A stretch of DNA of 64,000 bases from Ignavibacteria bacterium (GTDB lineage Bacteria; Bacteroidota; Ignavibacteria; UBA10030; F1-140-MAGs086): the NCBI GenBank assembly GCA_016873775.1, contig VGWC01000001.1, forward strand, positions 10,141 to 74,140. Direction: 5' to 3'. How positions within the stretch are numbered: position 1 is the first letter of the stretch; the number at the start of each line of letters is the position of its first letter. Shown here piece by piece: positions 3,391 through 62,900 of the stretch. A program made the translations under genes and the position numbers. The notes under the pieces are model-generated. The model made no database searches. It worked only from the letters and a program-made list of their open reading frames with translations, and was not told the DNA's origin.

Positions 3391-4803
3391 ATGCGACGTA
3401 CTTCAATTATTCTTTTCATTGTTTTTCTAACAATAACGATTCCATCGTGTAAGAAAGATGATAATAACATAACGCCTCCAATAGATTACGGAAACATTGA
3501 TACGATTAAATACACAAAACATGTGCAGGCGTTGTTCAATGATAAATGCGCTACGTCGGGATGTCATTCTTCGGCGACGAAAAGCGCGGGATTATCACTT
3601 GCATCGTGGAGTGGAGTTGTTCACGGTTCTTCGATTGGCGAAGTAGTAATTCCGTTTCGAGCGGATAAAAGTTTGCTTACGTATTTATTCGATGGAACTT
3701 CATTGAGAAAAAATCATCGAGCAGTAGAAAAGAAATTAACAACAGCAGAAATAAATTTTCTAAAACGTTGGATAAACGAAGGCGCAAGCAACGACGCGAA
3801 CGAAATACCGTTCACTAATTCTACAAACAAACTGTACGTTCCCAATCAAGGCGAAGATAACGTAGCGGTGATTGATTTGGATAGTATGCGCGTTATTCGT
3901 TATGTAAATGTTGGTGAATTGCCGACAAATGAAGGTCCGCATTTTGTAACTGCACGAAGCGATTTTTGGTATGTTTCACTTATAGGAGCCAAACAAGTGT
4001 GGAAATTTGATACGCACAATGATACGCTTGTTGTCGGAAAAGCAAATGTTCCCGGTTCTCCCGCATTGCTTACGCTTACACCCGACGGAAGCAAATTATA
4101 TGTTTCGCAATTTATGACTTCGGCTATCAATAAAGTGTATGTTATCAATACGAGTACTATGACTGTCGTAGATACGTTAACCGTTGGGAAAATGCCGCAT
4201 GGAATACGCATCAATCATTCGGGAACAAGGTTGTATTGCGCCAATATGATGTCGGATAATGTAACCGTTGTTGACGTTGCAACGAATGAAGTGTTGGAAC
4301 ATATTCCGCTTGCGTGGGATGCAAATCCGGTTCAGCCGAATTATTTACCGATTGAAATTGCTATTTCTCCCGATGATAATTTTTTTGCTGTTTCCTGTTC
4401 GAAAGACACCAAGAATGAAGTGCGAATTTTCAACACTTCTGCACACGCGCTTGTGGATTCGTTTCACGTTGGTGTTCAGCCGTGGCATTTACAATATTTG
4501 CGCGATGGAAGTTCTATAGTTGTTACCAATAGAGTTGGAAATTCCGTTTCACAAATTCATATTGCCGCGCGCCATGTGAATACCATACTATCCGCATCCA
4601 ATTTCGATTATCCGCATGGTTGCGTCATTTCGCCGAATGGAGGATATACGATTGTTTCCAATGAAAATGCGTATCATCGTTATCTTCCGCGTTATTTGTC
4701 GGAGTATGTCGGCAACGTATGTATTATAGATAATGCGCTGGCGCAAGTTGTCAAAGTTATTGAAGTCGGGAAAATTCCTACGGGAATTTCGGTGATTGAA
4801 TAA
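3391..4803 (+). CDS. Lipoprotein with an N-terminal PSCyt1-like (planctomycete-type) cytochrome c domain fused to a YVTN-family β-propeller.
   Basis: Signal peptide plus lipobox (TITIPSC). N-terminal domain FNDKCATSGCHSS…SAGLSLASW…VIPFRADKSLL…FLKRWINEGA resembles PSCyt1. It is followed by repeated 'YV.N….V.VID' β-propeller blades (LYVPNQGEDNVAVIDL, LYVSQFMTSAINKVYVIN, LYCANMMSDNVTVVDV, etc.). Confidence 0.65.
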   Translation: MRRTSIILFIVFLTITIPSCKKDDNNITPPIDYGNIDTIKYTKHVQALFNDKCATSGCHSSATKSAGLSLASWSGVVHGSSIGEVVIPFRADKSLLTYLFDGTSLRKNHRAVEKKLTTAEINFLKRWINEGASNDANEIPFTNSTNKLYVPNQGEDNVAVIDLDSMRVIRYVNVGELPTNEGPHFVTARSDFWYVSLIGAKQVWKFDTHNDTLVVGKANVPGSPALLTLTPDGSKLYVSQFMTSAINKVYVINTSTMTVVDTLTVGKMPHGIRINHSGTRLYCANMMSDNVTVVDVATNEVLEHIPLAWDANPVQPNYLPIEIAISPDDNFFAVSCSKDTKNEVRIFNTSAHALVDSFHVGVQPWHLQYLRDGSSIVVTNRVGNSVSQIHIAARHVNTILSASNFDYPHGCVISPNGGYTIVSNENAYHRYLPRYLSEYVGNVCIIDNALAQVVKVIEVGKIPTGISVIE

Positions 4804-4850
4804 ACAATTCTGTTTCGCAGATTTTAAAAAAAATTCAACTATTTGTTTTT

Positions 4851-6155
4851 ATGAAACGTACTATCTTCATCATTTCTGTTGTTATTCTTGCAATTTTTTC
4901 CAGTTGTAGAAAAGACGATAACACACAACAACCGCCGCCGTCCGAATATAAACTCACAGATTTTGAATCCTCGCAATCGTGTTCGACGTGTCATCCACAA
5001 TACTACGAAGAATGGAAAGGTTCGATGCATCGCTATGCAACGAACGACCCGATTTGGATGCTTGCGGCAAATTCACTTCAACAAAGCACGAACGGTAAAT
5101 TGAAAGACTGGTGTTTTCAATGTCATTCACCGATAGCATTTCTTACAAAAACATCGCCAAAAATGATTGATATTTCAAAATTACCGGAAATCGTTCGCGA
5201 AGGAGTGAACTGCGATGTATGTCATACATTGTTACCGCCTCATAAAACCACTGACCAAAATATCTTTTACAACATCAAACCTGGGAAAACAAAATATTCT
5301 ACGCTCAAAAATCCTGTTCCTGCCGGCGCGCACGAAAACGGTTACGACGCATCCCAAGACCGTTCAGAATCGTGTCGTCAATGTCACGATTTGATAGTGA
5401 ATGGTATCCCGTTGGAAATGACATTTACCGAATGGCAAAATAGTCAATGGGCAATGTCGGCGGAATTTGATTGTCAAGATTGTCATATGAAAACCTATAC
5501 AGGTCGCGCAGCAACCGGAGGACCTATTCGTGAAAATTTACATCGTCACGATTTCATCGGCGTAGATGTTGCAATCACCGATTTTCCGAATAAGCCGCAA
5601 CAACGTGCCGCTATTGATTCGCTTTTAAAAAATGCTGCGACGCTTACTGCAAATATTCCTTCTTCTGCCAATCTCAATGATTCCATAAACATCGGAGTTA
5701 CTATTATCAATGACAAAACGGGACATAATTTGCCGACGTCGGTTTTTTTCAACAGACAAATGTGGATAGAAGTAACAGTTTCCAAAGGAAGCGACACGGT
5801 ATATCGTTCCGGTCATTTCGATGCAAACGGCGATTTGATGGATAACAACAGTGCAATTGCTCCAAATGCAGATAAAGATTTGGTCATTTTCAACGGTTCG
5901 CTGTATAAAGATGGACACCCGTCGAATGCATTCGAACTTGATTCTGTTGTGAATAAAACCATTCCTCCGTTTGCTTGGCATACGGCAAATTACAAGTTCA
6001 AAGTTCTCTCTTCCGGAATATGGAATGTAAAAACACGCTTGCTCTTTCGTCCGTTTGGACCGTATTTATTTCGGAGTTTAGGCGCAAGTCAATATGTGTC
6101 CGAACTTCCTGTGTTCGAGATGAACTCGTACGAAACGAATATCAACGTTCAATAA
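4851..6155 (+). CDS. Pentahaem cytochrome c lipoprotein.
   Basis: Signal peptide plus lipobox (IFSSC). Five CXXCH motifs: CSTCH, CFQCH, CDVCH, CRQCH, CQDCH. Confidence 0.8.
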   Translation: MKRTIFIISVVILAIFSSCRKDDNTQQPPPSEYKLTDFESSQSCSTCHPQYYEEWKGSMHRYATNDPIWMLAANSLQQSTNGKLKDWCFQCHSPIAFLTKTSPKMIDISKLPEIVREGVNCDVCHTLLPPHKTTDQNIFYNIKPGKTKYSTLKNPVPAGAHENGYDASQDRSESCRQCHDLIVNGIPLEMTFTEWQNSQWAMSAEFDCQDCHMKTYTGRAATGGPIRENLHRHDFIGVDVAITDFPNKPQQRAAIDSLLKNAATLTANIPSSANLNDSINIGVTIINDKTGHNLPTSVFFNRQMWIEVTVSKGSDTVYRSGHFDANGDLMDNNSAIAPNADKDLVIFNGSLYKDGHPSNAFELDSVVNKTIPPFAWHTANYKFKVLSSGIWNVKTRLLFRPFGPYLFRSLGASQYVSELPVFEMNSYETNINVQ

Positions 6156-6293
6156 CCATACTGTTGCAGAGTATAAGGGTTTCAATTTTGAATTGAAGAT
6201 GCGACACGATTTCTTTTTTTCTTTCAAAATGGGAAAAAAGAAAATGGCATAAATATTGTAATAAGATAATTTGAATAATAATTCGAGGTTTTT

Positions 6294-6746
6294 ATGTCAA
6301 CAATATTTAGTAAATCTTGTGAATATGCACTGCAATCAATGCTGTATATTGCACGCAAAGCAAAAAATCAGCCGATTTTACTCCGCGATATTTCCACTGA
6401 ACTCAACATTCCTTATCATTTTCTCAGTAAAGTATTGCAAAATCTTGTGCGCGACGGTTTAGTCGTTTCGCATAGAGGAATCAACGGCGGATTTTTCTTA
6501 GGGCGCTCTGCGGAAGAAATAACGCTGTTCGATATTATTTGCGCTATTGAAGGAAAAACATTTTTCGATAATTGCATTCTCGGTTTTCCCAAATGCAGCG
6601 ACGAGTATCCATGTCCTGCTCATTTTCAATGGAAGGATGCAAAGTCCATTCTTCTCGAGGTCTTTCAGAGAAAAACCGTTGCAGAATTATCCATAGCACT
6701 TGACCCGAAACTGGAACTTGTTCACAAACTTTCAGGTATGAAGTAG
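6294..6746 (+). CDS. Rrf2-family transcriptional regulator (IscR/NsrR-like) with a 3-Cys cluster.
   Basis: N-terminal wHTH 'SCEYALQSMLYIARK…PILLRDISTELNIPYHFLSKVLQNLVRDGLVVSHRGINGGFFL' is typical Rrf2. Cys cluster CILGFPKCSDEYPC. Confidence 0.85.
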   Translation: MSTIFSKSCEYALQSMLYIARKAKNQPILLRDISTELNIPYHFLSKVLQNLVRDGLVVSHRGINGGFFLGRSAEEITLFDIICAIEGKTFFDNCILGFPKCSDEYPCPAHFQWKDAKSILLEVFQRKTVAELSIALDPKLELVHKLSGMK

Positions 6747-6973
6747 GGGAATTTTCTATTTCGCAATTATAAATAATAGTAAAAAGCAAGTCGGATACTT
6801 CTCATTTCTGATACAAGTATCCGATTTTTGCTTTCAATTGTGAAACCATAAATAAGATGCGTGATTTATTCACATCAAATAAGGAACTCATTTTCTTTTT
6901 TTACATATTTATCATTGGCACATTTTTTGTTTTATGAAATGCACGATGCTACGAAATAATAAAACCCGAAAGA

Positions 6974-8362
6974 ATGGAACAACCTATTACACAAATAGAT
7001 ATTGATTTTCTAAAGAAGTACGACAAAGCAGGGCCGCGCTATACAAGTTATCCTCCTGCTCCTATCTTTACTGTGGAATACAACGAGAAACTTTTTGAAA
7101 TTGACATTATAAAAAATAATGATGAAAATTACGCCCCGTTGTCACTGTATATTCATATTCCTTTTTGCGATACGTTATGTTATTTTTGCGGTTGCACAAC
7201 AGTAATAACAAACAATCGCCAACAGATAACACGCTATATATCAGCATTGAAAAAAGAAATAGAAAACATCGTTCCATATCTCAACAAGCGACGGCGCGTA
7301 GTACAACTCCACTTCGGCGGAGGAACTCCATCGTACCTTGAACCGAAAGAAATCGAAGATGTGTTTTCATTCATCGGTGAAAAATTCCGCTTTGCGCCGA
7401 ACGCGGAAATTAGTGTAGAAATTGACCCGCGAGGATTATCGTACGAACATTTACAGGCGTTTCGCAACGGAGGAGTAAATCGCATCAGTTTAGGAGTGCA
7501 GGATTTTGACGAAAACGTACAACGCACCGTCAACAGAATACAACCAGAAGAAATAACAACGCAAACGATTGCATGGGCGCATCAACTTGGAATAGACAGC
7601 ATCAACATAGATTTGATATACGGATTACCGTTGCAAACAGAGGAACAATTTTTAAGCACATTGAAAAAAATAATTCGCCACGCGCCGAATAGAATTGCCG
7701 TGTTCAATTTTGCGTATGTTCCTTGGATGAAACCACATCAAAAACTCATTCACGCAGAAGATTTACCTTCGGCGGAAACAAAACTTGCGTTGCTGAAAAC
7801 TACGATAGAACAACTAACGGGCGCTGGATACGAATATGTTGGAATGGATCATTTTGCAAAACCCGAAGATGAACTTGCGCGCGCGCGAAACGAACGAACA
7901 CTTCACAGAAATTTTCAGGGATATTCGACTAACGCGTATGCTGATTTGTATGCATTTGGAATGTCTTCCATTTCTCATTTTGGAACTACGTATGCGCAAA
8001 ATTGTAAGACATTGCAAGAATACTTCGATGCAATAGAACGGGGAAAATTTCCTATCAGTGTCGGTTACCGAATGACGCGCGACGACATTGTTCGTAAGTA
8101 CGCTATTATGCGATTAATGTGCGATTTAGTTCTGGATAAACAAGAAATGGAAGAACGATTTGGAATTTCGTTCAACGAATATTTTGCAGAATCGCTTGAA
8201 ATGCTGGAAGAATTTACGGAATCTGAACTTGTGAAAATCAACGAAGAAGAAATTCGCATAATCGGAATGGGACGTTTTATTCTCCGTAATATTGCAATGG
8301 TTTTTGATGCATACTTAAAAAAAGAAACAGAGGGAAAGAAACTCTATTCGCGAACTATTTAA
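6974..8362 (+). CDS. hemN: Oxygen-independent coproporphyrinogen III oxidase-like radical SAM enzyme (HemN family).
   Basis: N-terminal 'KYDKAGPRYTSYPPAP', radical-SAM CxxxCxxC (CDTLCYFC) and the expected length of 462 aa. Matches the established HemN architecture. Confidence 0.88.
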   Translation: MEQPITQIDIDFLKKYDKAGPRYTSYPPAPIFTVEYNEKLFEIDIIKNNDENYAPLSLYIHIPFCDTLCYFCGCTTVITNNRQQITRYISALKKEIENIVPYLNKRRRVVQLHFGGGTPSYLEPKEIEDVFSFIGEKFRFAPNAEISVEIDPRGLSYEHLQAFRNGGVNRISLGVQDFDENVQRTVNRIQPEEITTQTIAWAHQLGIDSINIDLIYGLPLQTEEQFLSTLKKIIRHAPNRIAVFNFAYVPWMKPHQKLIHAEDLPSAETKLALLKTTIEQLTGAGYEYVGMDHFAKPEDELARARNERTLHRNFQGYSTNAYADLYAFGMSSISHFGTTYAQNCKTLQEYFDAIERGKFPISVGYRMTRDDIVRKYAIMRLMCDLVLDKQEMEERFGISFNEYFAESLEMLEEFTESELVKINEEEIRIIGMGRFILRNIAMVFDAYLKKETEGKKLYSRTI

Positions 8363-8495
8363 AATGATGAACCAATGTTGAAGAATTCACAAAAAGCAAA
8401 ATATGTTGTTTTAAAAAAATACAAGCATAACGTATTTTGTCAACAAGATGTTCACTTGGTACACTTTTTGAAGATGCCATTATCATTGAAGATGT

Positions 8496-9041
8496 ATGAA
8501 CACGGCATTTTCAGAGATACAACGAAGCGGAAATTATTATAGCAGTGTGATGAGTTTTCATAGCGATCCGATTGAAACATTAGTCAAAGAACACGATGAC
8601 GCTTTGAAGCAACTGAATATTTTAAACAATGCGGCAATGTCCATTAAAGTGAACGGTTTTTCTGCCGAAGCGTTTGAAAAAATTGCCAAAACGATACGGT
8701 ACATCGGAACTGAAATGCGCAAACACGACGAGAAGGAAGAACGATTTCTTCTTCCATTGTTGGAAAAACATGTAAGCGGACCTTCCTCAGCGATGCGCAA
8801 CGAACACAGGGAGTTATGGGCGGCATTTTCGCAATTGTTGCAATTAGTTCACAATGCCGAAGAAGGAAAAATTACCGGTCGTTCCATTTCCGATTTAGTG
8901 CGTTCATCAATTTTTATCGTCGAACTCTCTACTACGCATATCGCAAAAGAGAATAATGTTCTTTTTCCAATGGTGAAGCAAGTTCTTTCCCAAGAAGAAT
9001 ATGAACAACTGAAACGAGATTTTGCAACAATAGAACAATAG
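8496..9041 (+). CDS. Hemerythrin-like (HHE cation-binding) domain protein.
   Basis: Repeated H/E-containing helices (LVKEHDDA, MRKHDEKEE, MRNEHREL, THIAKE) consistent with a hemerythrin-like di-iron domain. The true start may be an internal Met (MSFHSD…). Confidence 0.5.
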   Translation: MNTAFSEIQRSGNYYSSVMSFHSDPIETLVKEHDDALKQLNILNNAAMSIKVNGFSAEAFEKIAKTIRYIGTEMRKHDEKEERFLLPLLEKHVSGPSSAMRNEHRELWAAFSQLLQLVHNAEEGKITGRSISDLVRSSIFIVELSTTHIAKENNVLFPMVKQVLSQEEYEQLKRDFATIEQ

Positions 9042-9114
9042 AATGCTTTGTTAAGAGTAATGAACGGCATGAGTCAATACGCGGAGGCGCTCCGTGTAAC
9101 AGTTTGCGTGCAAT

Positions 9115-9363
9115 GTGTTTTTCGAAAGTCGAAACTTACGATGTGAAAGAGAAATCGAATGTCCGATGTTTTGCTACTTACCGGAAATGGTAAAAATTGT
9201 CAACGTTATGGAATGTGATGCATTAAGTGAGTATCTTGATGTATTGCGTCCGATTATCTGTGAAAATTGTAATGAAAGTACCGAAGGTTTTTGTTTTAAG
9301 CGCAGTGAAGATGAATGTCCTTTCGAAATGTATTTCTCGTTATTGAAGTTGTTACATTCATAA
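9115..9363 (+). CDS. Small Cys-rich hypothetical protein. Start uncertain; may be a non-coding ORF.
   Basis: ORF with 10 Cys in about 80 aa (CEREIEC, CENC, CFKRSEDEC). No recognisable family. Confidence 0.25.
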   Translation: MFFESRNLRCEREIECPMFCYLPEMVKIVNVMECDALSEYLDVLRPIICENCNESTEGFCFKRSEDECPFEMYFSLLKLLHS

Positions 9364-9470
9364 ATTTTCCGTAAATCTTATCGAGTTTTTTTTAAGTTAA
9401 GGGAATATATTTTTATTACCGAACCAATTGAAAATCACTTACATCAAATTTCATAGATAATCATACGCCG

Positions 9471-9791
9471 ATGAGCAACATTCCAAAACAATACAAAAAA
9501 TTTTCTAAAGATTTTCCTGAGGTAATCCACGCATACGAAGCATTAGGAAAAGCAGTTCATTCTGCAGGTCCGTTAAATGAGAAAACACGTGCGCTTATCA
9601 AACTCGCTATTTCCGTTGGCGGGAAATTGGAAGGCGCAGTTCACTCGCATACGCGCAAAGCGCTCAATGCCGGCGCATCTCCCGATGAAATTCGACACGT
9701 TGCTTTGCTTGCGCTTCCTACCATTGGTTTACCTTCGATGATGGCGGCAATGAGTTGGGTAAACGATATTCTCGACGAACGAAAAAAATAA
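9471..9791 (+). CDS. Carboxymuconolactone decarboxylase (CMD/AhpD-like) family protein.
   Basis: CMD-family signature 'ALIKLAISVGGKLEGAVHSHTRKALNAGASPDEIRHVALLA' and the expected size of about 106 aa. Confidence 0.7.
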   Translation: MSNIPKQYKKFSKDFPEVIHAYEALGKAVHSAGPLNEKTRALIKLAISVGGKLEGAVHSHTRKALNAGASPDEIRHVALLALPTIGLPSMMAAMSWVNDILDERKK

Positions 9792-10777
9792 TGCCGCTGG
9801 TAGATTTATTCGGAAGAAATCACGAGTATTTACGCGTCTCTGTTACTGACCGTTGCAATCTTCATTGCCGATATTGTGTTCCTTCCGAAGGAATAAAAGT
9901 TCAGCGACGCGAAGAAATTCTTTCCTTTGAAGAAATAGAATTGCTTGCGCGCATTTTTGTTACATTGGGAATAAAAAAAATACGGATTACCGGAGGCGAA
10001 CCGTTATTGCGCGATGGCTTAGAAACATTATGCGCTTCTCTCTCTTCCATTGTCGGACTTCGTTCGCTTGCACTTACAACGAACGGCGTTTTGCTTACAG
10101 AAAAAAGTTCTGCACTGAAACACAGCGGAATTCAACAACTCAATATTTCACTTGATACACTTCAGCAACGGCGGTTTGAACACGTTACGAAACGAGCATC
10201 GTTCAACGAAGTTCTGCGAGGTATTGAATCAGCAATTCTTGCCGGATTTGAAGAAGTAAAAATCAATACTGTCGTAATGCGCAATTTCAACGATGATGAA
10301 TTACTGGATTTTGTAGCGTTTGCGAAATCGCTTTCGCTCAATGTTCGCTTTATCGAATTTATGCCTTTTTTAGGAAATGGTTGGAACCACGGAAGATTTG
10401 TTTCATTTCTCGAAATGAAACAAATCATTGAAACACAATTTACCTTAGTTCCAAAATGGAACGAACAAATTCTTCCAGGACCGGCAAAAGAATTTTCGGT
10501 GGATAATAGCAATGCGACGATTGGATTTATTACAACCATGAGCGACCATTTTTGCAGCGATTGTAATCGCTTGCGAATTTCTGCAATGGGAATCATTCGA
10601 AACTGTTTATTTGCCCAAAGCGGTATTGATGTAAAAACTCCATTGCGCAATGGTGCGACAATGAATGAACTGGAAATGCTGATTCGTTCTTCCGTGCTTT
10701 CTAAATGGGAAAAACATCCCGAAGAACATGAACTCGTGCAACTTCAGCAACAATCTATGATAGGAATTGGCGGATAA
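9791..10777 (+). CDS. moaA: GTP 3',8-cyclase MoaA (molybdenum cofactor biosynthesis, radical SAM).
   Basis: 'YLRVSVTDRCNLHCRYCVP' radical-SAM motif and the C-terminal Cys motif CSDCNRLRISAMG. The ATG at 9791 overlaps the stop of the upstream gene; the track ORF begins earlier at 9755. Confidence 0.9.
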   Translation: MPLVDLFGRNHEYLRVSVTDRCNLHCRYCVPSEGIKVQRREEILSFEEIELLARIFVTLGIKKIRITGGEPLLRDGLETLCASLSSIVGLRSLALTTNGVLLTEKSSALKHSGIQQLNISLDTLQQRRFEHVTKRASFNEVLRGIESAILAGFEEVKINTVVMRNFNDDELLDFVAFAKSLSLNVRFIEFMPFLGNGWNHGRFVSFLEMKQIIETQFTLVPKWNEQILPGPAKEFSVDNSNATIGFITTMSDHFCSDCNRLRISAMGIIRNCLFAQSGIDVKTPLRNGATMNELEMLIRSSVLSKWEKHPEEHELVQLQQQSMIGIGG

Positions 10778-11387
10778 TATTTTTTCGATGCAACAGCGAA
10801 CAGACATAACAGGGATTATACTTGCCGGCGGAAAAAGTTTGCGAATGGGTAGTGACAAAGCGCTTCTTTCCTTAGGAAATAGAACGTTATTGCAATGTGT
10901 TGCAGATGCGATGAAACAGGTTTTTCACAATGTGATAATTATTTCTGACAATGGTGAGTGTTATACGGAATTACAATTGCCCGTATTTCCCGATGTGTAT
11001 AAATGTTGCGGACCGTTAGGGGGAATTCATTCGGCGTTTGCTCATTCGTCGTCGGAAAATATTTTTGTTGTATCGTGCGATTTGCCATACATTACTCCCG
11101 AAGTAATTCAATACATCACGAATATTCATTCAAACGGTGATGTCATCATTGTATCACAAGGAAGAATTATTCAACCACTTTGCGGATTATATCAACGAAC
11201 TTGTGTTGCTACGCTCGAACAATGTCTTTTCAAGAGCGAATTTTCTGTGCTGAGATTCTTGCGAAAACTCAATACGTATGTGCTTTCGCTTAATACTCTA
11301 TTCCCTTCTGTAGCAGAACATACGCTAATGAATATCAACACTCCGATAGAATACCGCAGGAGTGTAAATTATTGGTATGGGAATTAA
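10767..11387 (+). CDS. mobA: Molybdenum cofactor guanylyltransferase MobA.
   Basis: 'ITGIILAGGKSLRMGSDKALL' nucleotidyltransferase motif, the expected size, and position directly downstream of moaA. Confidence 0.8.
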   Translation: MADNIFSMQQRTDITGIILAGGKSLRMGSDKALLSLGNRTLLQCVADAMKQVFHNVIIISDNGECYTELQLPVFPDVYKCCGPLGGIHSAFAHSSSENIFVVSCDLPYITPEVIQYITNIHSNGDVIIVSQGRIIQPLCGLYQRTCVATLEQCLFKSEFSVLRFLRKLNTYVLSLNTLFPSVAEHTLMNINTPIEYRRSVNYWYGN

Positions 11388-11467
11388 TAAAAATTTTTTT
11401 TTCATCAATTCGCGAGTATTTTTCTCTCGCTTCTCTTTTACATTTTCAACAACAAGAATTAAATAAT

Positions 11468-11941
11468 ATGTTTCAATTAAGCCGCAGCGGTGAATATGCA
11501 ATTCAAACAATGATAAATTTAGTATCGCAGAAAGATGAATTATCAACAATCGCTCAAATCGTCCAGGAAGAAAGAATTCCGGAGTCATTTGTTCGGAAAA
11601 TCATTCAGCAATTGATTCGCGGAAAACTTCTGAAATCGAAACGTGGAATTCGTGGAGGAATTGCATTGGCAAAACCCCCCTCTTCAATAACCGTATACGA
11701 TATTATTGAAATTACTGAAGGTCCTATCTATTTTAACAAATGCATCATCGGACCACGCGAATGTTCCATAACGTCTTGGTGTTCCGTGCATCCTGTTTGG
11801 CAAGAAGCGCAAAATAAATTTGTAGAAGTTCTGCAAAAAAAAACGATTGAAGATTTATCAAACGAGCGAAAGGTATTGTTTCGGGATTTTACAACGAAAG
11901 TAAATATGAATAAGGAAAAAAGCGACGCGCTTCAAGAATAA
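11468..11941 (+). CDS. Rrf2-family transcriptional regulator, second paralog.
   Basis: 'MFQLSRSGEYAIQTMINL…GIRGGIALAKPP…ITVYDIIEITEG' wHTH plus Cys cluster CIIGPRECSITSWC. The internal ATG at 11468 gives the canonical Rrf2 N-terminus; the track ORF starts at 11372. Confidence 0.8.
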   Translation: MFQLSRSGEYAIQTMINLVSQKDELSTIAQIVQEERIPESFVRKIIQQLIRGKLLKSKRGIRGGIALAKPPSSITVYDIIEITEGPIYFNKCIIGPRECSITSWCSVHPVWQEAQNKFVEVLQKKTIEDLSNERKVLFRDFTTKVNMNKEKSDALQE

Positions 11942-12099
11942 CCTTCAAGGTTTTTTTGATTTTAAAGGCGGTGTTTCACATGAGTTGATGGCTTTCTTAC
12001 AAGACCGTAAACGGTCTTGCTGGACGAAAAAAGAATCATCAATGATTCTTTGGTTTTATTCCGATTTATCGGATTTTTTTGTTTCAGCATAACCATGAA

Positions 12100-12722
12100 A
12101 TGCAATCTGAAAGATTTTTTCCTCGACAAGAAACAACGCGAAAGCATCCTGGACATCATTCGAAAAGAAAAGAAAATAGAAAATACAAAACTGGAACTGA
12201 TACGATGCGACGGGAACAATATTCACGTTATCGAAAACGAAGTCGGCATATCAATGAGCAAGGAGAATTAATTCAAACGCACGGATTCATTATTGACGTA
12301 ACTGGGAAAAAGACACTGGAAAAACAATTCCGACAAGCGCAAAAATTAGAGAGCGTTGGAACGATAGCGGGAGGAATTGCGTACGATTTGAATAATATAC
12401 TTACCATTATTTTTAGGACATTCATCATTACTGAAACGAACAAAAGGAAATCCCGAAAAAATTTATCAAAAGGATGGAGAAGGAGCCGTTTCGATTTATT
12501 GCAAAAATGCTCATACCATTTTGCTTGTGTTGAGCGATTTAGGATTACCAAAACTTGGAGGATGGGAAGCATTCTTGAAAATGAGAGATTTCAATCCGAA
12601 AATTAAAACAATTTTTGCAAGCGGTTACATCGCGCCCATAAGAAATCTGAGTATTTCAAATCAGGCGTAAATGATTTTGTTCAAAAGTCATATTCATCAA
12701 ACGAAATTTTGAAAAAAATTTG
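12100..12722 (+). pseudogene. Decayed hybrid sensor histidine kinase / response regulator remnant, spread over three or more reading frames.
   Basis: Reading frame A carries a PAS-end-like '[19 protein letters not shown]'. Reading frame B carries the HisKA H-box '[32 protein letters not shown]', in which the phospho-accepting His is replaced by Tyr. Reading frames C and D carry receiver-domain pieces '[37 protein letters not shown]' and 'SGVNDFVQKSYSSNEILKKI'. No HATPase_c domain is present. Confidence 0.55.
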
Positions 12723-12811
12723 TGAAGCCATAGAAATTCCCGAAAGTAAAAAATTTTTTTGAAAACAAAATTTTGTATTTTGAGAGAAATTTTATCACTA
12801 ATTGAAATTCT

Positions 12812-13243
12812 ATGAGTCTTCTCTTTAGCCGCCAATGTGAATATGCATTACAAGCCATTCTTTTTCTTGCTACAAAACCGCCAAAAGAAATGGTACCAGC
12901 AAAAGAATTAGCAGAAAAATTGAATATCCCGTATCATTTTTTGGCAAAAATATTTCAAGATTTATCCAGAAAAGGAATATTGGTTTCCTTAAAAGGACCA
13001 ACCGGTGGGTTCACTCTTGGAAAAGCCGCCAAAGAAATTACGCTTTTTCATATTATTGAGGCAATTGATGGAGCAAATTTCATGGAAAATTGCGTTTTAG
13101 GATTTTCTCAATGTGGGGGAGAGAATCCTTGTGCTGTGCATAATAAGTGGGGAGATTTGCGCGATGAAATACATAGGATGCTCACATCAAAAAATATTAT
13201 GCAGTTGTCGAAAGAAATGAAGAAACCTGTATTTCAAGAATAA
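12812..13243 (+). CDS. Rrf2-family transcriptional regulator, third paralog. Closest to the 6294 copy.
   Basis: 'RQCEYALQAILFLATK…ELAEKLNIPYHFLAKIFQDLSRKGILVSLKGPTGGFTL' plus Cys cluster CVLGFSQCGGENPC. Confidence 0.85.
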   Translation: MSLLFSRQCEYALQAILFLATKPPKEMVPAKELAEKLNIPYHFLAKIFQDLSRKGILVSLKGPTGGFTLGKAAKEITLFHIIEAIDGANFMENCVLGFSQCGGENPCAVHNKWGDLRDEIHRMLTSKNIMQLSKEMKKPVFQE

Positions 13244-26802: not shown

Positions 26803-29800
26803 ATGATGCCGATGATACAGCGTTCTCTTCTTATAGATCTTCACTATTCAAAAATTCTCTCAAGACTGATTGTTATTTTCTTCATTTTCCCGATAATTGT
26901 TTTAGCACAATCAACTTCGTGGAAAGGAAACGGAACAACTGCTTGGAATACAGCAAGCAACTGGACCAATGGCGTTCCCAATAGCGGTGTTGATGCTATC
27001 ATTGGAGATGCAAATATGGTGGGAACAACGCAACCAACGATAAATACCACTTCCGCTTCGTGCAACAATCTAACTATTGGAAACGAAACAGTGCCTTCCA
27101 CTCTTACAACCGGAAACAACAATTTTTCGGTTTCAGGTAATGTAACGATAGGCGCAAACGGTACACTTGTTCACAGTGCGACAAGCGGAACCCGAATATT
27201 ATCCGTGAGTGGGAACTGGATTCAAACGGGAGCATATACAGCCGCTAATGCAGTTGCTACTGTTTCATTTGAATTACCAGCAACGATGAGCGGTTCCGGT
27301 CCATTTAAAACAGTTGTAACGAATGATTCCATTGCGTTGCTATCCAATATTACAGTTAATACATCGCTGACAATGAATGGAACATTCGAACCAAATTCGT
27401 TTGCTGTTTTGGGAAGTGGTTCGCTGAATTTATACGGAACGTTATACATCAATGCTTCCACGTTCGCAGGAAATATTTCTTTGAGCGGAACGAAAACTCT
27501 GGAACCGTTGAGTATTGTTCACTATAACGCTTCAACAGCAAATCAAACCATTGATAATTCGTTGAGTTATGCAGTATTAAATCTTGCAGGTGGAATGACA
27601 AAAACAGCAGGAGGAAATCTTACCGTTACAGAAGATTTGTATCTCCTTGAAGGAACTCTTAATTTATCAACGTTCACCGCAAATGGCGGAGGAGGAATAT
27701 TGGACATTGCAGAAAATACTTCTCTGAACATCGGCGGAACAAATTCGTTTCCTTCAGGATATGGAAATATTACCATAGATGTTGCAAGTACTGTTGAATA
27801 CAACGGAACGAATCAAACAGTTGCTGCACAAACGTACGGAAATCTCACTTTGAGCAACGCCGGCGCGACGGTTACAAAAACTCTTCCTTCATCTTCAACT
27901 ACTATTGAAGGAAACTTGATTCTAAACAATGGTTCTGGAACTTCACTAACGGCAAACGCAAATAATGCTCTGAATATTTCCGGAAACGTTACAATTGGAA
28001 ACGGTTGCACTCTGAACGGAAGTAATTATTCTCACAATGTTTATGGTAATTGGACTAACAGCGGCACATATAATTCATCAGCAAATGGTGCAGTAACTTT
28101 CAACGGCTCCAATACAACATTGAGCGGGAACGGAACAAATAATTTTTACGATGTGAATTTTTCCGGAAACGGAATTTCCACTTCTTCTTCTACAAATATT
28201 TCCGTCTCAGGAAATTTCACTTCCAATCCAGGCGCATCTTTCACCCATATAAGCGGAGGAGTCGGAACAGTTTCATTAACCGGAACTTCAAAAAGTATCA
28301 GTGGTTCATTGATTAAATTCAATCATTTATCGCTTTCAAGTTCGTATACCACCTCCAGTTCGTTTTCTATCGCAGGAAATTTAACAGTGAACGGTTCATT
28401 TTCTGCTACAAGCGGCGCAGTTACATTTTCCGGAACATCCATTCTTTCAGGAACAGGAACAATCAATTTCTATGATGTAACGGTAAGCGGAACACTTACA
28501 TTAGCTGCGAATACAACGCTTGGGATTGCGGCGACGCTTTCAACTTCTTCGGAAAATTTTAACGCAACTTCCAATACTCCCAACACGGTAAAATTCAACG
28601 GAACAGGAGCGCAAAACATTCCCGCGCTTACAGTTTACAATTTACAATTTGAAGGCGGTGGAACAAAAACCGTAACAGGAAATCTTTCTCTTCACAATGA
28701 TTTTACAATTGGAAATTCCGTGAGTTTCGACGTGGCTTCCTACGCACATTCCATTGCAGGAAGTATTTCCAATTCGGGAACAATGTTAGAAAATACGTCC
28801 ACGATGACAATGACAGGTGCAGGAAAAACAATTTCCGGAAGCGGAGTAACTTCGTTTCATTCGTTCATTATCAGTGTTACGGGAAATATTACTGCAACGC
28901 AAAATTTTAGTATTACAGGTAATTTGACGAATAACGGAACATTTTCCAATTCTGCAAATACCGTTACTTTCAGCGGTTCTGAAAATGCAAATATCAACGG
29001 AACAACTTCGCCGACTTCGTTTAATGCGATAGCAATTTCAAAAATCGGCGGCGCTTCCGTTGCACTGGGAATGAACATTTCCGATTTAAGTTCACTCAAT
29101 ATTTCCAGCGGAATTTTAAAACTTTCATCGTTTTCTGTTTCACAAGCAGGCGGTGGCGGAATACTCACAATCGGAAGCGGAGCAACGTTAACGATTGGCG
29201 GTTCCAATTCCTTTCCAACATTTAATGCGTACAGTATTTCAACTTCCAGCACTGTTGAATATAATGGAAACGGTACGCAAACAATTTCGGCAAAAAATTA
29301 CGGAAATCTAACCAGTAGCAATTCCGGAAATCGTATTCTTGCTTCCAGCGGAATAATCGGTATTGCAAAAGCGTTTGACCCCGGTTTCAATTCGTTCACT
29401 ATTACCGGAAGCACGATAGAATTTAACGGCTCAGGTACTCAAACAATTCCAGCGTTCAATTATAATAATCTCACAAGCACAGGAATCGGGGAACGCGTGT
29501 TTGCTTCCGGCGGAACAATCGGAATTGCAGGTACCTTTACAAAAGGAACAAATTCGTACTCGACAACAAATAGTACAATAGATTTTAATGGAAGTACACA
29601 AGTAATTCCTTCTCTTACGTATAACAATCTTGCAACAAGCGGAAGCGGCACAAAAACTCTTAGTGGAAATGTAACAGTGAACGGAACGCTTTCTCTTACT
29701 TCCGGAAGTTTCGCTGATGGAGGATTTACGGTAACCGCAAACGGCAATGTTGAAAATGACGATGCGCATACCGGTTCAGGAAAAATTTTGCTTTCGGGAG

Positions 29801-32800
29801 GAACTGCAGAACATGAAATTTCCGGCAATGGCCCGTTCACTAATCTCCACGTCAATGATACCAATGGAGTTCTTGCGGCTTCCGATATTACAGTGAATGG
29901 AACGCTTACTCTCTCAAACGGGAATATTACTACAAATACGAATAAAGTTATTATCAATTCGACCGGTTCTGTTTCGCACACAAGTGGGCACGTCATCGGG
30001 AATTTAGAAAAAGCAATTTCAGCAGGAAACTCTTCAAAGACGTTTGAAATTGGAAAGGGTAGCAATTACTTGCCCGTTTCTCTTTCGTTCAATAATGTTT
30101 CAACTTCCGGAAAACTTACTGTTAGCACAACCAACGGCGACCATCCGAATATTGCAACTTCTAATGTTCGTTCCGATAAAAGCGTGAATCGTTTCTGGAG
30201 TTTGGCAAACAACGGAATTGCACTCACTTCGTACGATGCCGTTTTCAATTTTCTTTCTACGGATGTTGATGCAAGCGCAAACACGAATAGTTTTATTGTT
30301 CAAAGTTACGACGGAAGTTCGTGGAATACGCATACTGTTGGAACAAAAACAGGAATGTCAACGCAAATACTTAGCTCAACGTCGTTCAGCGATTTTCAAA
30401 TCGGCGAACAAGTGGATAATCCAGTTCCATCAACAACAAGTATTTCTCCAACAACAAAAAATGTCGGTGATGCGGAATTTACACTTACGGTAAGTGGAAC
30501 AAATTTCATCAATGTTTCCGTCGTACGATTGAACGGTTCTGATAGAGCAACAACATTTATCAACAATTCGCAACTTGAAGCAACAATTCCCGCAAGCGAC
30601 TTGTTGAATCCAGGAAATTACAGCATCACGGTTTTTAACCCGGCGCCTGCAGGTGGAACTTCCAATGCGCAAACGCTAACGATTATAGGCGGTTCAATCA
30701 GTGGTGTGAAATTTAACGATACAAACGGAAACGGCGCAAAAGATAACGGAGAAGCGCTTCTTGCAAATTGGGTAATCAATCTTTCGGGAAAGTCAACTGC
30801 TTCCGATACAACCGATGGAAGCGGCGCATTTTCTTTCAGCAATCTTTCTGCGGGTTCGTACACTATTAGTGAAGAGTCGCAAAACGGATGGATGCAAACG
30901 CTTCCGCTTTTCGGTGGGAATTACAACATCAATGTTGGCGCTTCTACAATCGTTTTTTCCGACTATAATTTCGGAAATTTTCAATTTGGTAGTATGAGCG
31001 GAACCAAATTCAATGATACAGACGGCGATGGAATGAAAGAAGTCGGAGAAGTTGGTTTAGAAAACTGGAAAATAAAAATCTCAGGTCCAATGAATGATTC
31101 TGTATTTACAGATGCGAACGGAAATTATACGTTTTCAAATTTAATTGCCGGAACATATACTGTGAGTGAAATTGTACAAAGCGGATGGGTGCAAACTTTT
31201 CCTTCATTACCGGGGACTCATTCTGTTCTTATCAACAGCGGAACAAATTACACAGGAAAAAATTTTGGAAACTTTCAACTTGGCTCGATTGCCGGCGTGA
31301 AATTCAATGACACCGATGGTGATGGAATAAAAGATGTTGGCGAACCTTTGCTTGAAAACTGGCGCATTCGTCTTTCGGGAGCAAAAACAGATTCGATGCT
31401 TACGAATGCTTTGGGACAATATTCCTTCACGAGTTTAGGTCCCGGAAATTATACAGTCAGTGAAGCAGTGCAAAACGGTTGGTCGCAAACATCTTCACCA
31501 ACGTCGTTTTCCATTACGATGTTGAGCGGCGATGTGAACATTGATAAGGATTTTGGCAATTTTCAACTCGGAACAATTTCAGGAAATGTTTTCAACGATA
31601 TTGATGGCGATGGCGTTCGGGAATTTGGTGAAAGCGGTTTGCAATCGTGGAAAATAAAAATCACTGGTCCTCGCATTGATTCTGTAACAACAGATGCGAA
31701 CGGAAATTATTTGTTCACAAGTTTATCTGCCGGAAATTATTCTTTATCCGAAGTTGTGCAAAGCGGTTATGTGCAAACAACATCACCGACAACGCTTTCC
31801 GTTACAATTACAAGTGGAACTATTTCAACCAACAGCGATTTTGGGAATTTTCATCTTGGTTCCGTAAGTGGAATAAAATTCAACGACGCAAATGGAAACG
31901 GCGCAAAAGATGGCGGCGAAGTTGGATTGCAGAATTTCAGAATAAAAATTTCCGGCGCAATCAATGATTCTGTTCTTACGGATGCCAATGGAAATTATTC
32001 ATTCACAAATTTAAACGTCGGAACGTACACGCTCAGCGAAGTGCAGCAAAACGGATATATTCAAACGATGCCGCCAAATCCCGGTACGTATTCAGTGAAT
32101 ATTCAAAGTGGAACAAATGCAGTGAATAAAGATTTCGGAAACTTTATGCAAGGAGAAATCAGTGGTTTGAAATTCAATGACGTGAATGGAAACGGCGCTC
32201 AAGATGTTGGTGAAAACGGACTTCAAAACTGGAAAATAAAAATTTCCGGTCCTCAAAATGATTCCGTTCTTACTGATGCAAATGGAAATTATTCGTTTGT
32301 GAATTTATCTGCGGGAACATACACCGTGAGCGAAGTATTGCAAAGCGGATGGATGCAAACGTTTCCAACATCTCCTTCAACGTATTCAGTAAATATAAAC
32401 AGCGGAACCAATGCAGCGAATAAAAACTTCGGCAATTTTCAATACGGAAGTGTGAGCGGTGTTGTGTTCACCGATACTGATGGTGACGGAACCAACGATG
32501 CGGGCGAAAACGGTCTCGAAGGATGGCGCGTTCGTTTGTCAGGAACACGCACGGATTCGACGTTGACAAACGCAAACGGAAATTATTCGTTTGGAAATCT
32601 CACTGCGGGAAATTATACGGTGAGCGTTGTAGTACAAAACGGATATGTGCAAACTGTTCCCGTTTCTCCGTCAACATTTTCCATTTCCGTACAAAGTGGA
32701 AGCAGTTTTTCGAATAAAGATTTCGGAGAATTTCAACTTGCAACTATCAGCGGAATGAAATTTAATGACCTCAACGGCAACGGTACAAAAGACGGAAACG

Positions 32801-35405: not shown

Positions 35406-36656
35406 TTATTTTGGCAATGTAATTCGAAACGTTGTACCTTTTCCGGCTTTGCTTTCAACGAGTTCCAGTTTTCCTTTGTGATACATTTCAATAATTCGCT
35501 TTGAAAGCGTAAGTCCCAATCCCCATCCTCGTTCTTTCGTGCTGTAACCTGGACGAAACACTTCTTTTCTGTGTTGCGCAATAATTCCTTTTCCTGTATC
35601 AGCGACATCAATGCAAAGTACTTTGTTGTTTCCTTCGAGCGAAAATGTGATGCTTCCGTTTTTTGTTTCAATGGCGTCAATAGCGTTCTTTACAAGATTT
35701 TCAAACACCCATTCAAGAAGTTCACGATTGACGCGAGCAAGAGCTTCTCCGCTGTGATGAAGTTGAAACGCAACTTGTTTTCCTGCGCCAAATCGTGTAG
35801 AAGTGTTGATACGTTTCTGAAAATATTCAACAATCGTTTGAATAATTTCGAGAATGTTTTCTTCTTTTAAATTCGGCTTCGAACCGATTTTTGAAAATCG
35901 TTCGGCAACTTTATTGAGCCGCTGAATATCATTTTCCATTTCGGAAATTGTTTCTAACGCTTTTTCCCGCTCATCCGTATCGCGTTGCAACTGCGATTTG
36001 ATGATTTCCAACCATCCCATCATACTCGAAAGCGGCGTTCCGAGTTGATGCGCCGTTTCTTTTGACATTCCCACCCAAATACTGCTTTGTTCATTTCGTT
36101 TTAAATAACTGAACCCGAAATATGCAAGCAAAACAAACATCGCGCCGAGACTTATTTCGACATACGGAAGTTGTTGAAGTTGCACAATCATTTTTCGAAT
36201 ACTGATAATCGTGTGAGATTCGCTGTAATGAATTTCGCTCACGACCAGTGTTTCTTGATAAACAATTTTGATGGGAGGATTCTGTTCGTCCATTTTCTTC
36301 ACCAGTTGACGCAAAAAAAATGTTTGGGCAGAATCCGAAAGAGCGGAATCCAATACTACATTGCGATACGATTTAATAACATTTCCCGAAGCATCAGTTT
36401 CGATAAGCGGAAAATCAATGGCGGAAATTATTTTATCAAACAGAAATTCAAAATCGGTGGGCGTTTCGCTGTTTGCAACGTGTTCAATCGTTTTGGCGTA
36501 GAGATTTGCAACTTTTTGTTCATCGCGCAGAAGTTGGTGAACGATTGTTTGCAAATTTGTTACGATATATTGCGAGTAATAGAGAATGCCAAGCACCAAT
36601 ATAAATGCTACGGCAAGCAAGAAGAATTTGATGTTTGTGGAGCGAAGGCCGCGCAT
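35406..36656 (-). CDS. Sensor histidine kinase (HisKA + HATPase_c) with an N-terminal TM. Orphan: no cognate response regulator is adjacent.
   Basis: H-box 'HQLGTPLSSMMGWLEI', N-box 'LVKNAIDA', G-boxes 'DTGKGI' and 'GWGLGL'. Confidence 0.85.
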   Translation of the reverse strand: MRGLRSTNIKFFLLAVAFILVLGILYYSQYIVTNLQTIVHQLLRDEQKVANLYAKTIEHVANSETPTDFEFLFDKIISAIDFPLIETDASGNVIKSYRNVVLDSALSDSAQTFFLRQLVKKMDEQNPPIKIVYQETLVVSEIHYSESHTIISIRKMIVQLQQLPYVEISLGAMFVLLAYFGFSYLKRNEQSSIWVGMSKETAHQLGTPLSSMMGWLEIIKSQLQRDTDEREKALETISEMENDIQRLNKVAERFSKIGSKPNLKEENILEIIQTIVEYFQKRINTSTRFGAGKQVAFQLHHSGEALARVNRELLEWVFENLVKNAIDAIETKNGSITFSLEGNNKVLCIDVADTGKGIIAQHRKEVFRPGYSTKERGWGLGLTLSKRIIEMYHKGKLELVESKAGKGTTFRITLPK

Positions 36657-59974: not shown

Positions 59975-62900
59975 TTATTTCAGTAACAACAATTTTTTCA
60001 TTGCTGTTTTCTTTCCGCTTTCCAAGCGATAGATGTACACACCGCTTCCATATTTTTCGCTATTGAACTGAACGTTGTAACGATTTCCAGGCTCAGCAGT
60101 TTCGCTGAATAAAACCGCAACTTCTTCGCCAAGAATATTGAACAATTTCAGCGTTGTATATCCTTCCGATTCGACTGTAAATGTAATCGTTGTTGAAGGA
60201 TTAAACGGATTTGGATAATTTTGAGAAAGCGAGAATACTTTCGGGATATGTTCTCCTGTGATAACTCCAACTATTGGCTGTATCGCAAAATTGTTGTTAT
60301 CATCGATAAAACCTGAAGTAGAAGTAAAAATGTATGTTCCGGGTGAATCAGGATAAGTTTGAATATAATTTTGTTTTGTTTGCGAACTTAATATGAAAAT
60401 TCCAGAGCGCACTGAATGGAAAAGGAAAGTTCCCTGTTCGTTGGTAAGAACAGAATCAACTTTTTGCAAACCCTGGGAAAGATATAATTTCCAGTTTGCA
60501 ATTCCATTTTCGTTCGGGTCGCGAAATTCATTACCGTTCGAATCAGCAAATACTTCGCCGCTGACTTTTGCATATTTGAAATTGCAAAAATCTTTTTCGG
60601 TAACTGTCGAACCGCTGGTGGCTATTTCAACGGTATATCGAGGCACTGCTGGAGAAGTTTTATACCATTCGGGTTTTACCATTTCGCGAACATAATACGT
60701 TCCAGTATTCAAGTTGATGAACGAATACCATCCAGCAGAATCAGTTACTGTAGAATCCATAAATGCTCCTGAAAGATAAACACGCCATCCTTGCAATGGC
60801 ATATCTTCGGAGTTGATTATTCCATTGCCATTGAAATCATTATAGATTGTTCCGCTAATAATTGCATATTGAAAATTTCCAAAGTTCAAATTTGCCGTGT
60901 CTTGTCCATCTGATAACGAGAGAGAATATGTTCCCGGGAAAGGAGGAAATGTTTGTTTCCAGCCGGAACGTTTTATTTCTGAAACTTGATACGTTCCCGG
61001 AGGATTGTTATTGAATTGATACATTCCATTTCCATCGGTAATCGTCGAATCCGTTTTTCTTCCGGAGAGATACACTTTCCAGTTTGCGATTCCTGGTTCT
61101 CCATTATCGAAAACACCGTTGCTATTCAAGTCGTTAAATGTTTTTCCAATCAATAAACTATTTCTCGAATTGCCGAAATCTTTTCCGACAATGCTATCTC
61201 CGCTTGTGAAAAGTATAGAATGAAATCCGGAAACAGGAAATGTTTGTACCCAATCGGGTTTGAAGATTTCTTTTACGTTGTATATTCCCGGTCGTACTGT
61301 TGTGAAAGCATAGGTTCCATTCGCATTTGTTGATGTCGTTTCCGAAGTTGAACTTCCCATCAAAACTATTTTCCAATTGGAAAGTCCAACTTCATTTCCG
61401 TCATTAATTCCGTTTCCGTTGACATCATAGAATTTCATTCCGGTAACAGTACCAAGTTTGGAATTGCCAAAATTGTTTGCAACAGATTGTGTTCCGCTTG
61501 TAACGGTAATCGAATATACGTTGAAAGCAGGATACGTTTGTATCCAGTTGTTTTGTATTTCTTCGCTCACAGTATAATTTCCCGGAACAAGTGTCGAAAA
61601 CGAATACGAGCCGTCAAGAAAAGTCAACGTTGAATCAATTTTTTTCCCTGAGAGTTTTATTTTCCAATTTGCAAGCGCAGTTTCATTCGAGTCGTGTATT
61701 CCGTTTCCATTTTTGTCGTGAAATTTCATTCCGGAAATTTTTCCATATTTGAAGTTTCCGAAATTTTTTTCTTCTTCTATTTGACCGCCGGAAGAAATTG
61801 TAACGCTGTATGTTCCTTCGGGAGGATATGTTGGCGACCAGTTTGTTTTTGTAACCTGCGAAACGGTGTACGTACCTTGCTCAACGAGCATAAATTCATA
61901 CGCGCCGTTTGCAGAAGTGTACGTCGTTTCTTTTTGACTTCCGACAGAAAGCACGACTTTCCAGTTTTCTATTCCTGTATCGTTTCCGTTATACGTACTA
62001 TCTGCATTCAAATCGTCAAAAACCATTCCTCGTATAATCCCGAGTTCGTATGCTCCGAAATTTTTTCCGGAAAGATGCAAATTACTCGTCAACGTAAATG
62101 AATGATTGTTCTGCGGGAATGTTTGTTTCCAATTCGATTTCGGAATTTGAACGAGAGTGTAATTTCCTCCTCTGAGATTAGGTATCGTAAACTGTCCAAT
62201 GTTATCCGTAACTGTTGAATCAGTGGAAGCGCCGGAAATTTTCAGTTTCCAATTGGCTAAAGGAAGTTCATCGAAATCAAATTGTCCGTTTGCGTTTTCG
62301 TCATTGAAAACAAAACCGGAAACAGAACCGAGAACAAAACTTCCGAAATTCTTTTGCTCAAAAAGAGAGCCGCCGATAATCGAAACGGAATATGCAAAGG
62401 CAGGAATTGTTTGCATCGAACCTTGAGGAACTGCTTGCGTGAGGATGTATTCTCCGACGCGAAGTTTGTTAAATGTAAATTCTCCGTTTGCATTCGTGAA
62501 TGTAGAATCGTTGGCAAATCCCGAAAGTCTGATTTTTCTGTTTGCAAGAAATGGTTCTCCGATATCATACGTGCTATCGCCGTTTGTATCGGTAAATGCA
62601 AATCCGGAAACAACACCAAGTTGATATATTCCAAAATTTTTGTCGGTGAAGATTGTTCCACTGAGTATTGCAACATTGTATTCGCCGGAAGATGTAGGAA
62701 GGGTAACATACATATTTGACGGCTTTTCAATTTTTACGATGTATGTTCCAATTTTTACGTTGTTAAAAATATAGAAACCGTTTGCATTAGTAGTTACCGT
62801 ATCTGTTTTCAATGTTCCAATTAAAAAAATGTTCCAATTTGCAAAAATATTTTCGTCCAAATCGTGCGTGCTGTTCCCATTCATATCATTGAAAACTGTT

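Follow-up and report, generated by a model that had tools for sequence, protein, structure and literature searches.

Remains of a hybrid sensor histidine kinase gene between two Rrf2-family regulator genes of an Ignavibacteria bacterium

A stretch of 64,000 nucleotides from an Ignavibacteria bacterium (GenBank contig VGWC01000001.1, positions 10,141 to 74,140 of the forward strand), hereafter the window, carries three genes for Rrf2-family regulators. The second and third of these (11468-11941 and 12812-13243; window coordinates are used throughout unless a locus is named) are separated by a gap of 870 bp that contains the remains of a kinase gene, here called the relic. Translated in three frames, the gap yields the latter half of a PAS domain, then a linker and an H-box, then the end of the first helix of the dimerization and histidine phosphotransfer (DHp) domain and, abutting this helix, a receiver domain that starts midway. 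The homology spans 12091-12745 on the plus strand, slightly wider than the 12100-12722 to which an earlier sequence-only reading had pointed, and it is far beyond chance. An intact orthologue from a relative, described below, matches the window in tblastn with E-values of 4e-36 (receiver) and 1e-23 (PAS and H-box), distant intact hybrid kinases match it at 8e-18 and 1e-9 (L014 kinase), and the stitched relic translation scores 39.5 bits against Pfam Response_reg (cut-off 30.2; profile positions 29-110 of 111). The HisKA remnant (profile positions 5-34 of 66, E 0.003, 17.9 bits, cut-off 26.9) and the PAS_9 remnant (profile positions 35-102 of 103, E 0.008) are sub-threshold partial matches. We conclude that 12091-12745 is very probably a recently inactivated, non-functional pseudogene of a membrane-bound hybrid sensor histidine kinase.

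An intact gene occupies the same slot in a related genome. A search with the protein of the second Rrf2 gene returned one orthologue (P0015, 79% identity), which lies directly upstream of an intact kinase gene in L092-L096. Gene order in these loci is that of window 3391-11941 (beta-propeller/Cytochrom_D1 protein, multihaem cytochrome, Rrf2, HemN, hemerythrin, CMD, MoaA, MobA and Rrf2), and L092 1997-10441 aligns to window 3391-11908 with ~82.7% DNA identity over ~8.5 kb. At 94 bases past the orthologous Rrf2 gene there is an uninterrupted gene of 1106 codons (L092:10566-13886), whose product has the Pfam domains dCache_1 (33-231), three PAS, HisKA (736-797), HATPase_c (842-961) and Response_reg (986-1097). 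The kinase gene occurs in L093-L097 too; the copy in L097 is 100% identical and lies on a further contig. The gap aligns to two parts of this gene, window 12091-12470 corresponding to L092 12503-12882 at 80.3% DNA identity and window 12470-12745 to L092 13605-13881 at 81.2%. The relic retains orthologue codons 647-772 and 1014-1106; the 217 codons kept make up 20% of the 1106 and show 79% amino acid identity. The decaying two-component gene proposed in the sequence-only reading is borne out by this alignment, and two of the checks which that reading had suggested were informative: comparison with syntenic regions of related genomes supplied the intact gene, and mapping with an intact homologue, by tblastn and DNA alignment, placed all of the lesions.

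The same reading had recognized PAS-end, HisKA H-box and receiver segments in the gap, all of which are present, and had spread them over at least three reading frames, which was one too many. Five collinear segments alternate between two frames, the breaks between them being three 1-bp frameshifts and the junction of one in-frame deletion; the remaining frame of the gap has 17 stops and shows no homology. The flanking regulator genes and the parts of the relic are as follows.

11468..11941, plus strand: Rrf2-family regulator gene, second of three in the window; intact (Pfam Rrf2, 1.4e-33); left neighbour of the relic.
12092..12249, plus strand: relic segment A, second half of the last PAS domain; orthologue codons 647-699 (tblastn E 1e-23, DNA alignment).
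12249..12250, plus strand: frameshift 1, one base lost; GGCATCTTCAATGAG in the orthologue, GGCAT-ATCAATGAG in the window (DNA alignment).
12250..12411, plus strand: relic segment B, end of the PAS domain, linker and H-box; 54 codons (HisKA profile 5-34 of 66, E 0.003).
12382..12384, plus strand: Tyr codon TAC at the position of the phospho-acceptor His; CAC in the orthologue.
12407..12412, plus strand: frameshift 2, one base gained in a T run; ACCA-TAATTTTAGG in the orthologue, ACCATTATTTTTAGG in the window (DNA alignment).
12413..12469, plus strand: relic segment C, rest of the first DHp helix, 19 residues; orthologue codons 754-772.
12466..12470, plus strand: junction of a 723-bp in-frame deletion, with AAAG microhomology at both orthologue breakpoints; blastn segments abut at 12470.
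12470..12636, plus strand: relic segment D, receiver from 'KDGEGAV' to 'ASGYIAP' (tblastn 91% identity, E 4e-36).
12636..12637, plus strand: frameshift 3, one base lost; GCTCCGCATCAA in the orthologue, GCGCC-CATAAG in the window (DNA alignment).
12637..12762, plus strand: relic segment E, receiver C-terminus, beginning HKKSEYFKSGVNDFVQKSYSSNEILKKICEAIEIPES; homology to the orthologue stops at 12745, the position of the orthologue's stop codon.
12812..13243, plus strand: Rrf2-family regulator gene, third of three; intact (Pfam Rrf2, 1.6e-31); right neighbour of the relic.

The lesions affect every functional part of the kinase. With three frameshifts, five segments and an absent start, there is no uninterrupted open reading frame (ORF) with its own start codon. 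Upstream of 12091, orthologue codons 1-646 and the upstream spacer are gone, a deletion of ~1.9 kb which covers the extracellular Cache sensor, the membrane segment, and two and a half PAS domains and which the sequence-only reading had not noticed. The 723-bp in-frame deletion removes codons 773-1013; by the Pfam coordinates of the orthologue, these encode the second DHp helix, all of HATPase_c (residues 842-961) and the first 28 receiver positions, from strand 1 to helix 2. The DHp (HisKA) four-helix bundle is incomplete, and the ATP-binding domain that the sequence-only reading had found missing lies within this deletion. No HATPase_c homology was found in 11942-12811 by Pfam or tblastn, and the only HATPase_c match in the window is to a 416-amino-acid histidine kinase gene (35406-36656, minus strand) that is apparently intact and is unrelated to the relic. 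At the H-box, the orthologue reads AGGIAHDLNN and the surrounding context is the same in the relic; the kinases of L092, L014 and L053 all have His here (residue 742 of the orthologue), and one base change, CAC>TAC, accounts for the replacement of His by Tyr that had been noticed from the sequence. In the receiver, the phospho-acceptor Asp is kept in segment D (GAT, 12536-12538), strand 1 with its acidic pocket is absent through the deletion, and the text after 'ASGYIAP' resumes in the other frame as HKKSEYFKSGVNDFVQKSYSSNEILKKICEAIE, so that the domain is split by frameshift 3. A Ser codon (12688-12690) replaces the Pro of the receiver Lys-Pro, which is Pro in 11 of 11 outgroup sequences. In contrast to the relic, which is spread over two frames with Tyr for His and Ser for Pro, the orthologue has one ORF, the His, and a complete DHp, HATPase_c and receiver.

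From this comparison, the parent gene would have stood directly 3' of the second Rrf2 gene and encoded dCache_1, a transmembrane segment, three PAS domains, HisKA, HATPase_c and a receiver. The alignments show that the lineage of the window lost the first 646 codons and, via the AAAG microhomologies, an internal in-frame block of 241 codons, and that it gained the three 1-bp frameshifts, the His-to-Tyr change in the H-box and the change of receiver Lys-Pro to Lys-Ser, both at residues invariant in the family. The remnant would be unable to bind ATP, to autophosphorylate or to be translated as one protein. It also seems to be left without a sensor domain, promoter region or start codon, behind a terminator-like hairpin, and for these reasons it is expected to do nothing as a gene and to be DNA on its way to deletion.

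The age of the loss was estimated by the Nei-Gojobori method. Between relic and orthologue, non-synonymous divergence (dN) is 0.111, synonymous divergence (dS) is 0.92, and their ratio, omega, is 0.12; the corresponding values in the nine intact flanking genes are 0.075, 0.78 and 0.096 (range of omega per gene 0.06-0.25). The excess in the relic, ~10 non-synonymous changes, corresponds to ~4% of the lineage branch without constraint, and evolution that was neutral over the whole of its own branch would be expected to give an omega near 0.5. Because the omega of the relic lies near that of its intact neighbours, the death of the gene is recent. When amino acid changes were polarized with the L014 and L053 kinases and P0002-P0010 as outgroups, 15 fell on the window lineage, H>Y and P>S among them, as against 3 on that of the orthologue (binomial p = 0.0075). 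Taken together, the estimates suggest a relaxation of constraint that began only a short time ago, and the statement in the sequence-only reading that a signalling input was recently lost is a fair one.

Several points weigh against a recently inactivated, functionless gene. The dN/dS excess of the relic over its flanks is borderline (Fisher p = 0.076), and on dN/dS alone the relic is indistinguishable from constrained sequence, which we read as a sign of youth and not of function. Many of the polarizations in the PAS and H-box part rest on two distant outgroups, and a strict count gives 10 changes versus at most 3 (p = 0.09). The intact orthologue was found in one lineage only, which gives no basis for ordering the lesions in time; a metagenome scan with it returned one more copy of the same gene and one distant match, with no intermediate stages of decay. 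Finally, some residual RNA or peptide may still be made from the relic.

Two further features bear on the alternatives.

12003..12083, plus strand: three hairpins between the second Rrf2 gene and the relic, at ~12003-12022, 12030-12051 and 12060-12073; the third is followed by T7 and is terminator-like.
12079..12606, plus strand: spurious ORF of 175 amino acids without a Pfam family, whose sole database relative is itself.

One could suppose that the gene is intact in the organism, and that the frameshifts and deletions are homopolymer errors or products of mis-assembly. One of the three frameshifts does fall in a T run (12407-12412), another T run differs in length between assemblies (12073), and contigs of several assemblies stop close to the gap (at 12023 and 12742-12751). 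This is nevertheless extremely improbable. Five independent assemblies from different samples (three JGI, 3300020220, 3300020221 and 3300020603, and two Logan, SRR7985589 and SRR7990334) and two pipelines, with 99.92-100% identity to the window, reproduce all three frameshifts and both deletions, and one of them, L004, holds the whole gap in a single contig; sequencing error, which the sequence-only reading had named as the possible refutation, is ruled out by this agreement. Within the gap only three differences were seen among the assemblies (a T run at 12073 that is one T longer, G>A at 12501, A>C at 12797), and all of them leave the frameshifts and deletion junctions untouched. Two of the three frameshifts lie outside homopolymers, deletions of 723 bp and ~1.9 kb cannot arise from base-calling, and across the adjacent ~8.5 kb none of the nine flanking genes is shortened relative to its orthologue. 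The relic shares with unitary pseudogenes a functional gene at the syntenic position in a relative and disabling lesions that are real, as they recur in five assemblies. We give next to no weight to a derivation of the two blocks from two genes, one for a kinase and a neighbouring one for a stand-alone response regulator. A search with the stitched relic matched mostly 131-amino-acid stand-alone receivers (e.g., P0003), but at only 52-55% identity, whereas the receiver is 81% identical to that of the orthologue, in which a single syntenic ORF of 1106 codons holds both blocks collinearly (codons 647-772 and 1014-1106); the internal deletion, moreover, is in frame within one gene. Programmed frameshifting was also considered and rejected, since with three alternating shifts, two large deletions and lost catalytic residues no reading gives a working kinase.

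It is very improbable that the 175-amino-acid ORF, its 168-amino-acid version or some smaller ORF (12521-12670, for instance) gives rise to a genuine small protein, either a new gene or a truncated receiver. The long ORF is open for 175 codons, its version from the ATG is deposited (P0001, NCBI 'MAG: hypothetical protein FJ218_00100 [Ignavibacteria bacterium]'), and the phospho-acceptor Asp of the receiver is kept. Against this, the ancestral frame is kept by just 54 of its codons (12250-12411), and the rest is out of frame, rich in lysine and arginine, and without a family match; no homologue but itself was found in a collection of 5.8 billion proteins. A search with the stitched PAS/H-box half likewise returned the window's own spurious ORF only, the query being short and mutated and kinases being out of reach of a word-index search. 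A terminator-like hairpin stands just upstream with no convincing promoter, the 3 promoter-like sites being no excess over the 3.3 expected from shuffles, and the receiver fragment lacks the strand 1 acidic pocket and is broken by frameshift 3. The sequence-only reading was right to call this ORF an artefact of decay. A different role, in which the relic persists as a promoter or leader control region for the downstream module of Rrf2, NapH-like ferredoxin and methyltransferase genes, is unlikely. The end of the relic is joined to the start of the third Rrf2 gene by 66 bp of AT-rich palindromic DNA. A loose regular expression, applied to the 140 bp upstream of the corresponding Rrf2 gene in relatives (L012-L091), finds the palindrome AAGACTA-N3-5-AGTCTGA in no fewer than 30 of 61 loci and TTGAC in 38. 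A TTGACA-type promoter followed by this palindrome is thus conserved in at least half of them and is likely to be an autoregulatory operator; both are absent at a suitable place in window 12672-12811.

The sequence around the relic has few recognizable features of its own. The first of the three hairpins (caagaccg-taaa-cggtcttg) was read by eye, and inverted repeat I15 also lies in the hairpin region. The 149-bp spacer at 11942-12090, which takes the place of the lost 5' part, and the 66-bp spacer at 12746-12811 both lack a blastn match in the fetched loci and in the rest of the window; the spacer of L092 differs from the former. An Rfam scan of 11800-12900 gave nothing that reached its gathering score, AbsR25 at 29.4 bits (47) and tsr26 at 24.4 (141) being chance matches. 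Polymorphism among the five assemblies is not significantly denser inside the gap than outside it (3 events versus 1.2 expected, p = 0.12). In four of the five assemblies a contig begins or stops at a border of the relic: L002 and L003 begin at 12023, and the last position is 12742 in L001 and 12751 in L005. This may reflect low-complexity, AT-rich sequence, the variable T run at 12073, or another allele that was not sampled.

Downstream, synteny with the relative breaks at 12745/12746, a few bases from the kinase stop codon (compared with L092 13881-14400). The genes 3' of the kinase in the relative encode a Por_Secre_tail protein, GlmS and an N6/N4 DNA methyltransferase, and those 3' of the relic encode Rrf2, a NapH-like ferredoxin and a methyltransferase. 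When the right-flank genes of the orthologue (GlmS, the N6/N4 methyltransferase and others) were searched for in the 64-kb window they were absent, and only paralogous Por_Secre_tail domains matched. Such C-termini occur in two very large ORFs with repeated domains, at 26803-35301 (2832 amino acids, plus strand) and 59975-63997 (1340 amino acids, minus strand), which cross-match secreted proteins of the relative.

The third Rrf2 gene is the first gene of a conserved module of Rrf2, NapH-like ferredoxin and methyltransferase, whose genes stay together throughout the 80 Ignavibacteriota/Bacteroidota loci retrieved. A scan of species-representative genomes with the NapH-like neighbour found no locus with a kinase between two Rrf2 genes. 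The methyltransferase 3' of the NapH-like gene is split in some loci, as two ORFs of 133 and 144 amino acids or as a two-frame match (L009 and L010, 6102-6892; L025, 11202-11956), which suggests frameshifts or pseudogenes in those assemblies. All three Rrf2 regulators of the window, which are of the Fe-S type, carry a three-Cys motif, and their NCBIfam match reaches the cut-off of the rrf2 superfamily only.

Around the relic, besides the three Rrf2 genes, are genes for a YtfE/RIC-like hemerythrin, HemN, MoaA and MobA, the NapH/NosR-like ferredoxin and the methyltransferase, and HypD, HypC and HypF (Hyp, hydrogenase maturation). Judged by their family names, these neighbours would point to anaerobic respiration and to iron-sulfur and nitrosative stress. 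At the far end of the syntenic block, a 470-amino-acid beta-propeller protein (3391-4803), for which the record of the orthologue gives Cytochrom_D1/Lactonase Pfam matches, has a weak NCBIfam match to lactonase-type clade III N2O reductase (63.8 bits, cut-off 700). Its gene is followed by that of a 434-amino-acid multihaem c-type cytochrome (4851-6155), and the pair shows 88-90% amino acid identity with the relative. The samples that hold this Ignavibacteria population are ones that we take to be Lake Tanganyika water-column metagenomes.

In this population the signalling input of the kinase would have been lost, and that input was probably linked to the neighbouring genes of anaerobic respiration and nitrosative stress. 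The locus would then document a population that recently dropped a Cache/PAS-type sensor kinase within such a block, a small example of regulatory streamlining and of deletional erosion at an early stage, and it opens no new mechanistic question. The relic is an ordinary, well-documented young pseudogene with nothing new in kind about it, and it is chiefly of use for correcting the annotation: FJ218_00100, which now adds a spurious singleton cluster to protein databases, should become a pseudogene feature.

The parent gene belongs to the hybrid kinases with an H-box of the GGIAHDxNN type. The best NCBIfam matches of the orthologue are PRK13557 (376 bits) and CckA (367 bits), with cut-offs of 631 and 1000 bits; since both scores fall below these, it is only a general relative of such kinases and no CckA equivalog. 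The H-box and receiver fragments of the relic align to the 'GGIAHDFNN' hybrid kinases of L014 and L053, the multi-PAS proteins that served as outgroups and not as orthologues. Among the loci of the scan with the NapH-like neighbour, only these two have such a related kinase gene, and it lies 0.4-1.7 kb past the methyltransferase gene, beside HemN. Stand-alone receivers of 131 amino acids in L006-L011, which are 52-55% identical to the relic receiver, sit immediately 3' of a Fer4_5 (NapH-like) protein, with the methyltransferase between the two in L009-L011. The receiver clade of the relic thus seems to be repeatedly linked to the NapH-like module (L006-L011, L014 and L053).

Measured against known systems, the relic resembles the GGIAHDFNN-type family in sequence and falls short of its members on every functional requirement. 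Tyr at the H-box position of a HisKA-type dimerization helix is also found in DivL of Caulobacter crescentus, a histidine kinase homologue in which Tyr replaces the phospho-acceptor His. DivL is an intact and essential protein with complete DHp and catalytic domains, whereas the frame of the relic is broken three times and its catalytic domain is deleted; for this reason the Tyr of the relic is best read as one more mutation of decay. The closest counterpart is provided by bacterial pseudogenes eroded by deletional bias, which is an established concept. The relic is like these in its frameshifts and large deletions, its narrow lineage and its surviving syntenic orthologue, and is a typical example of them.

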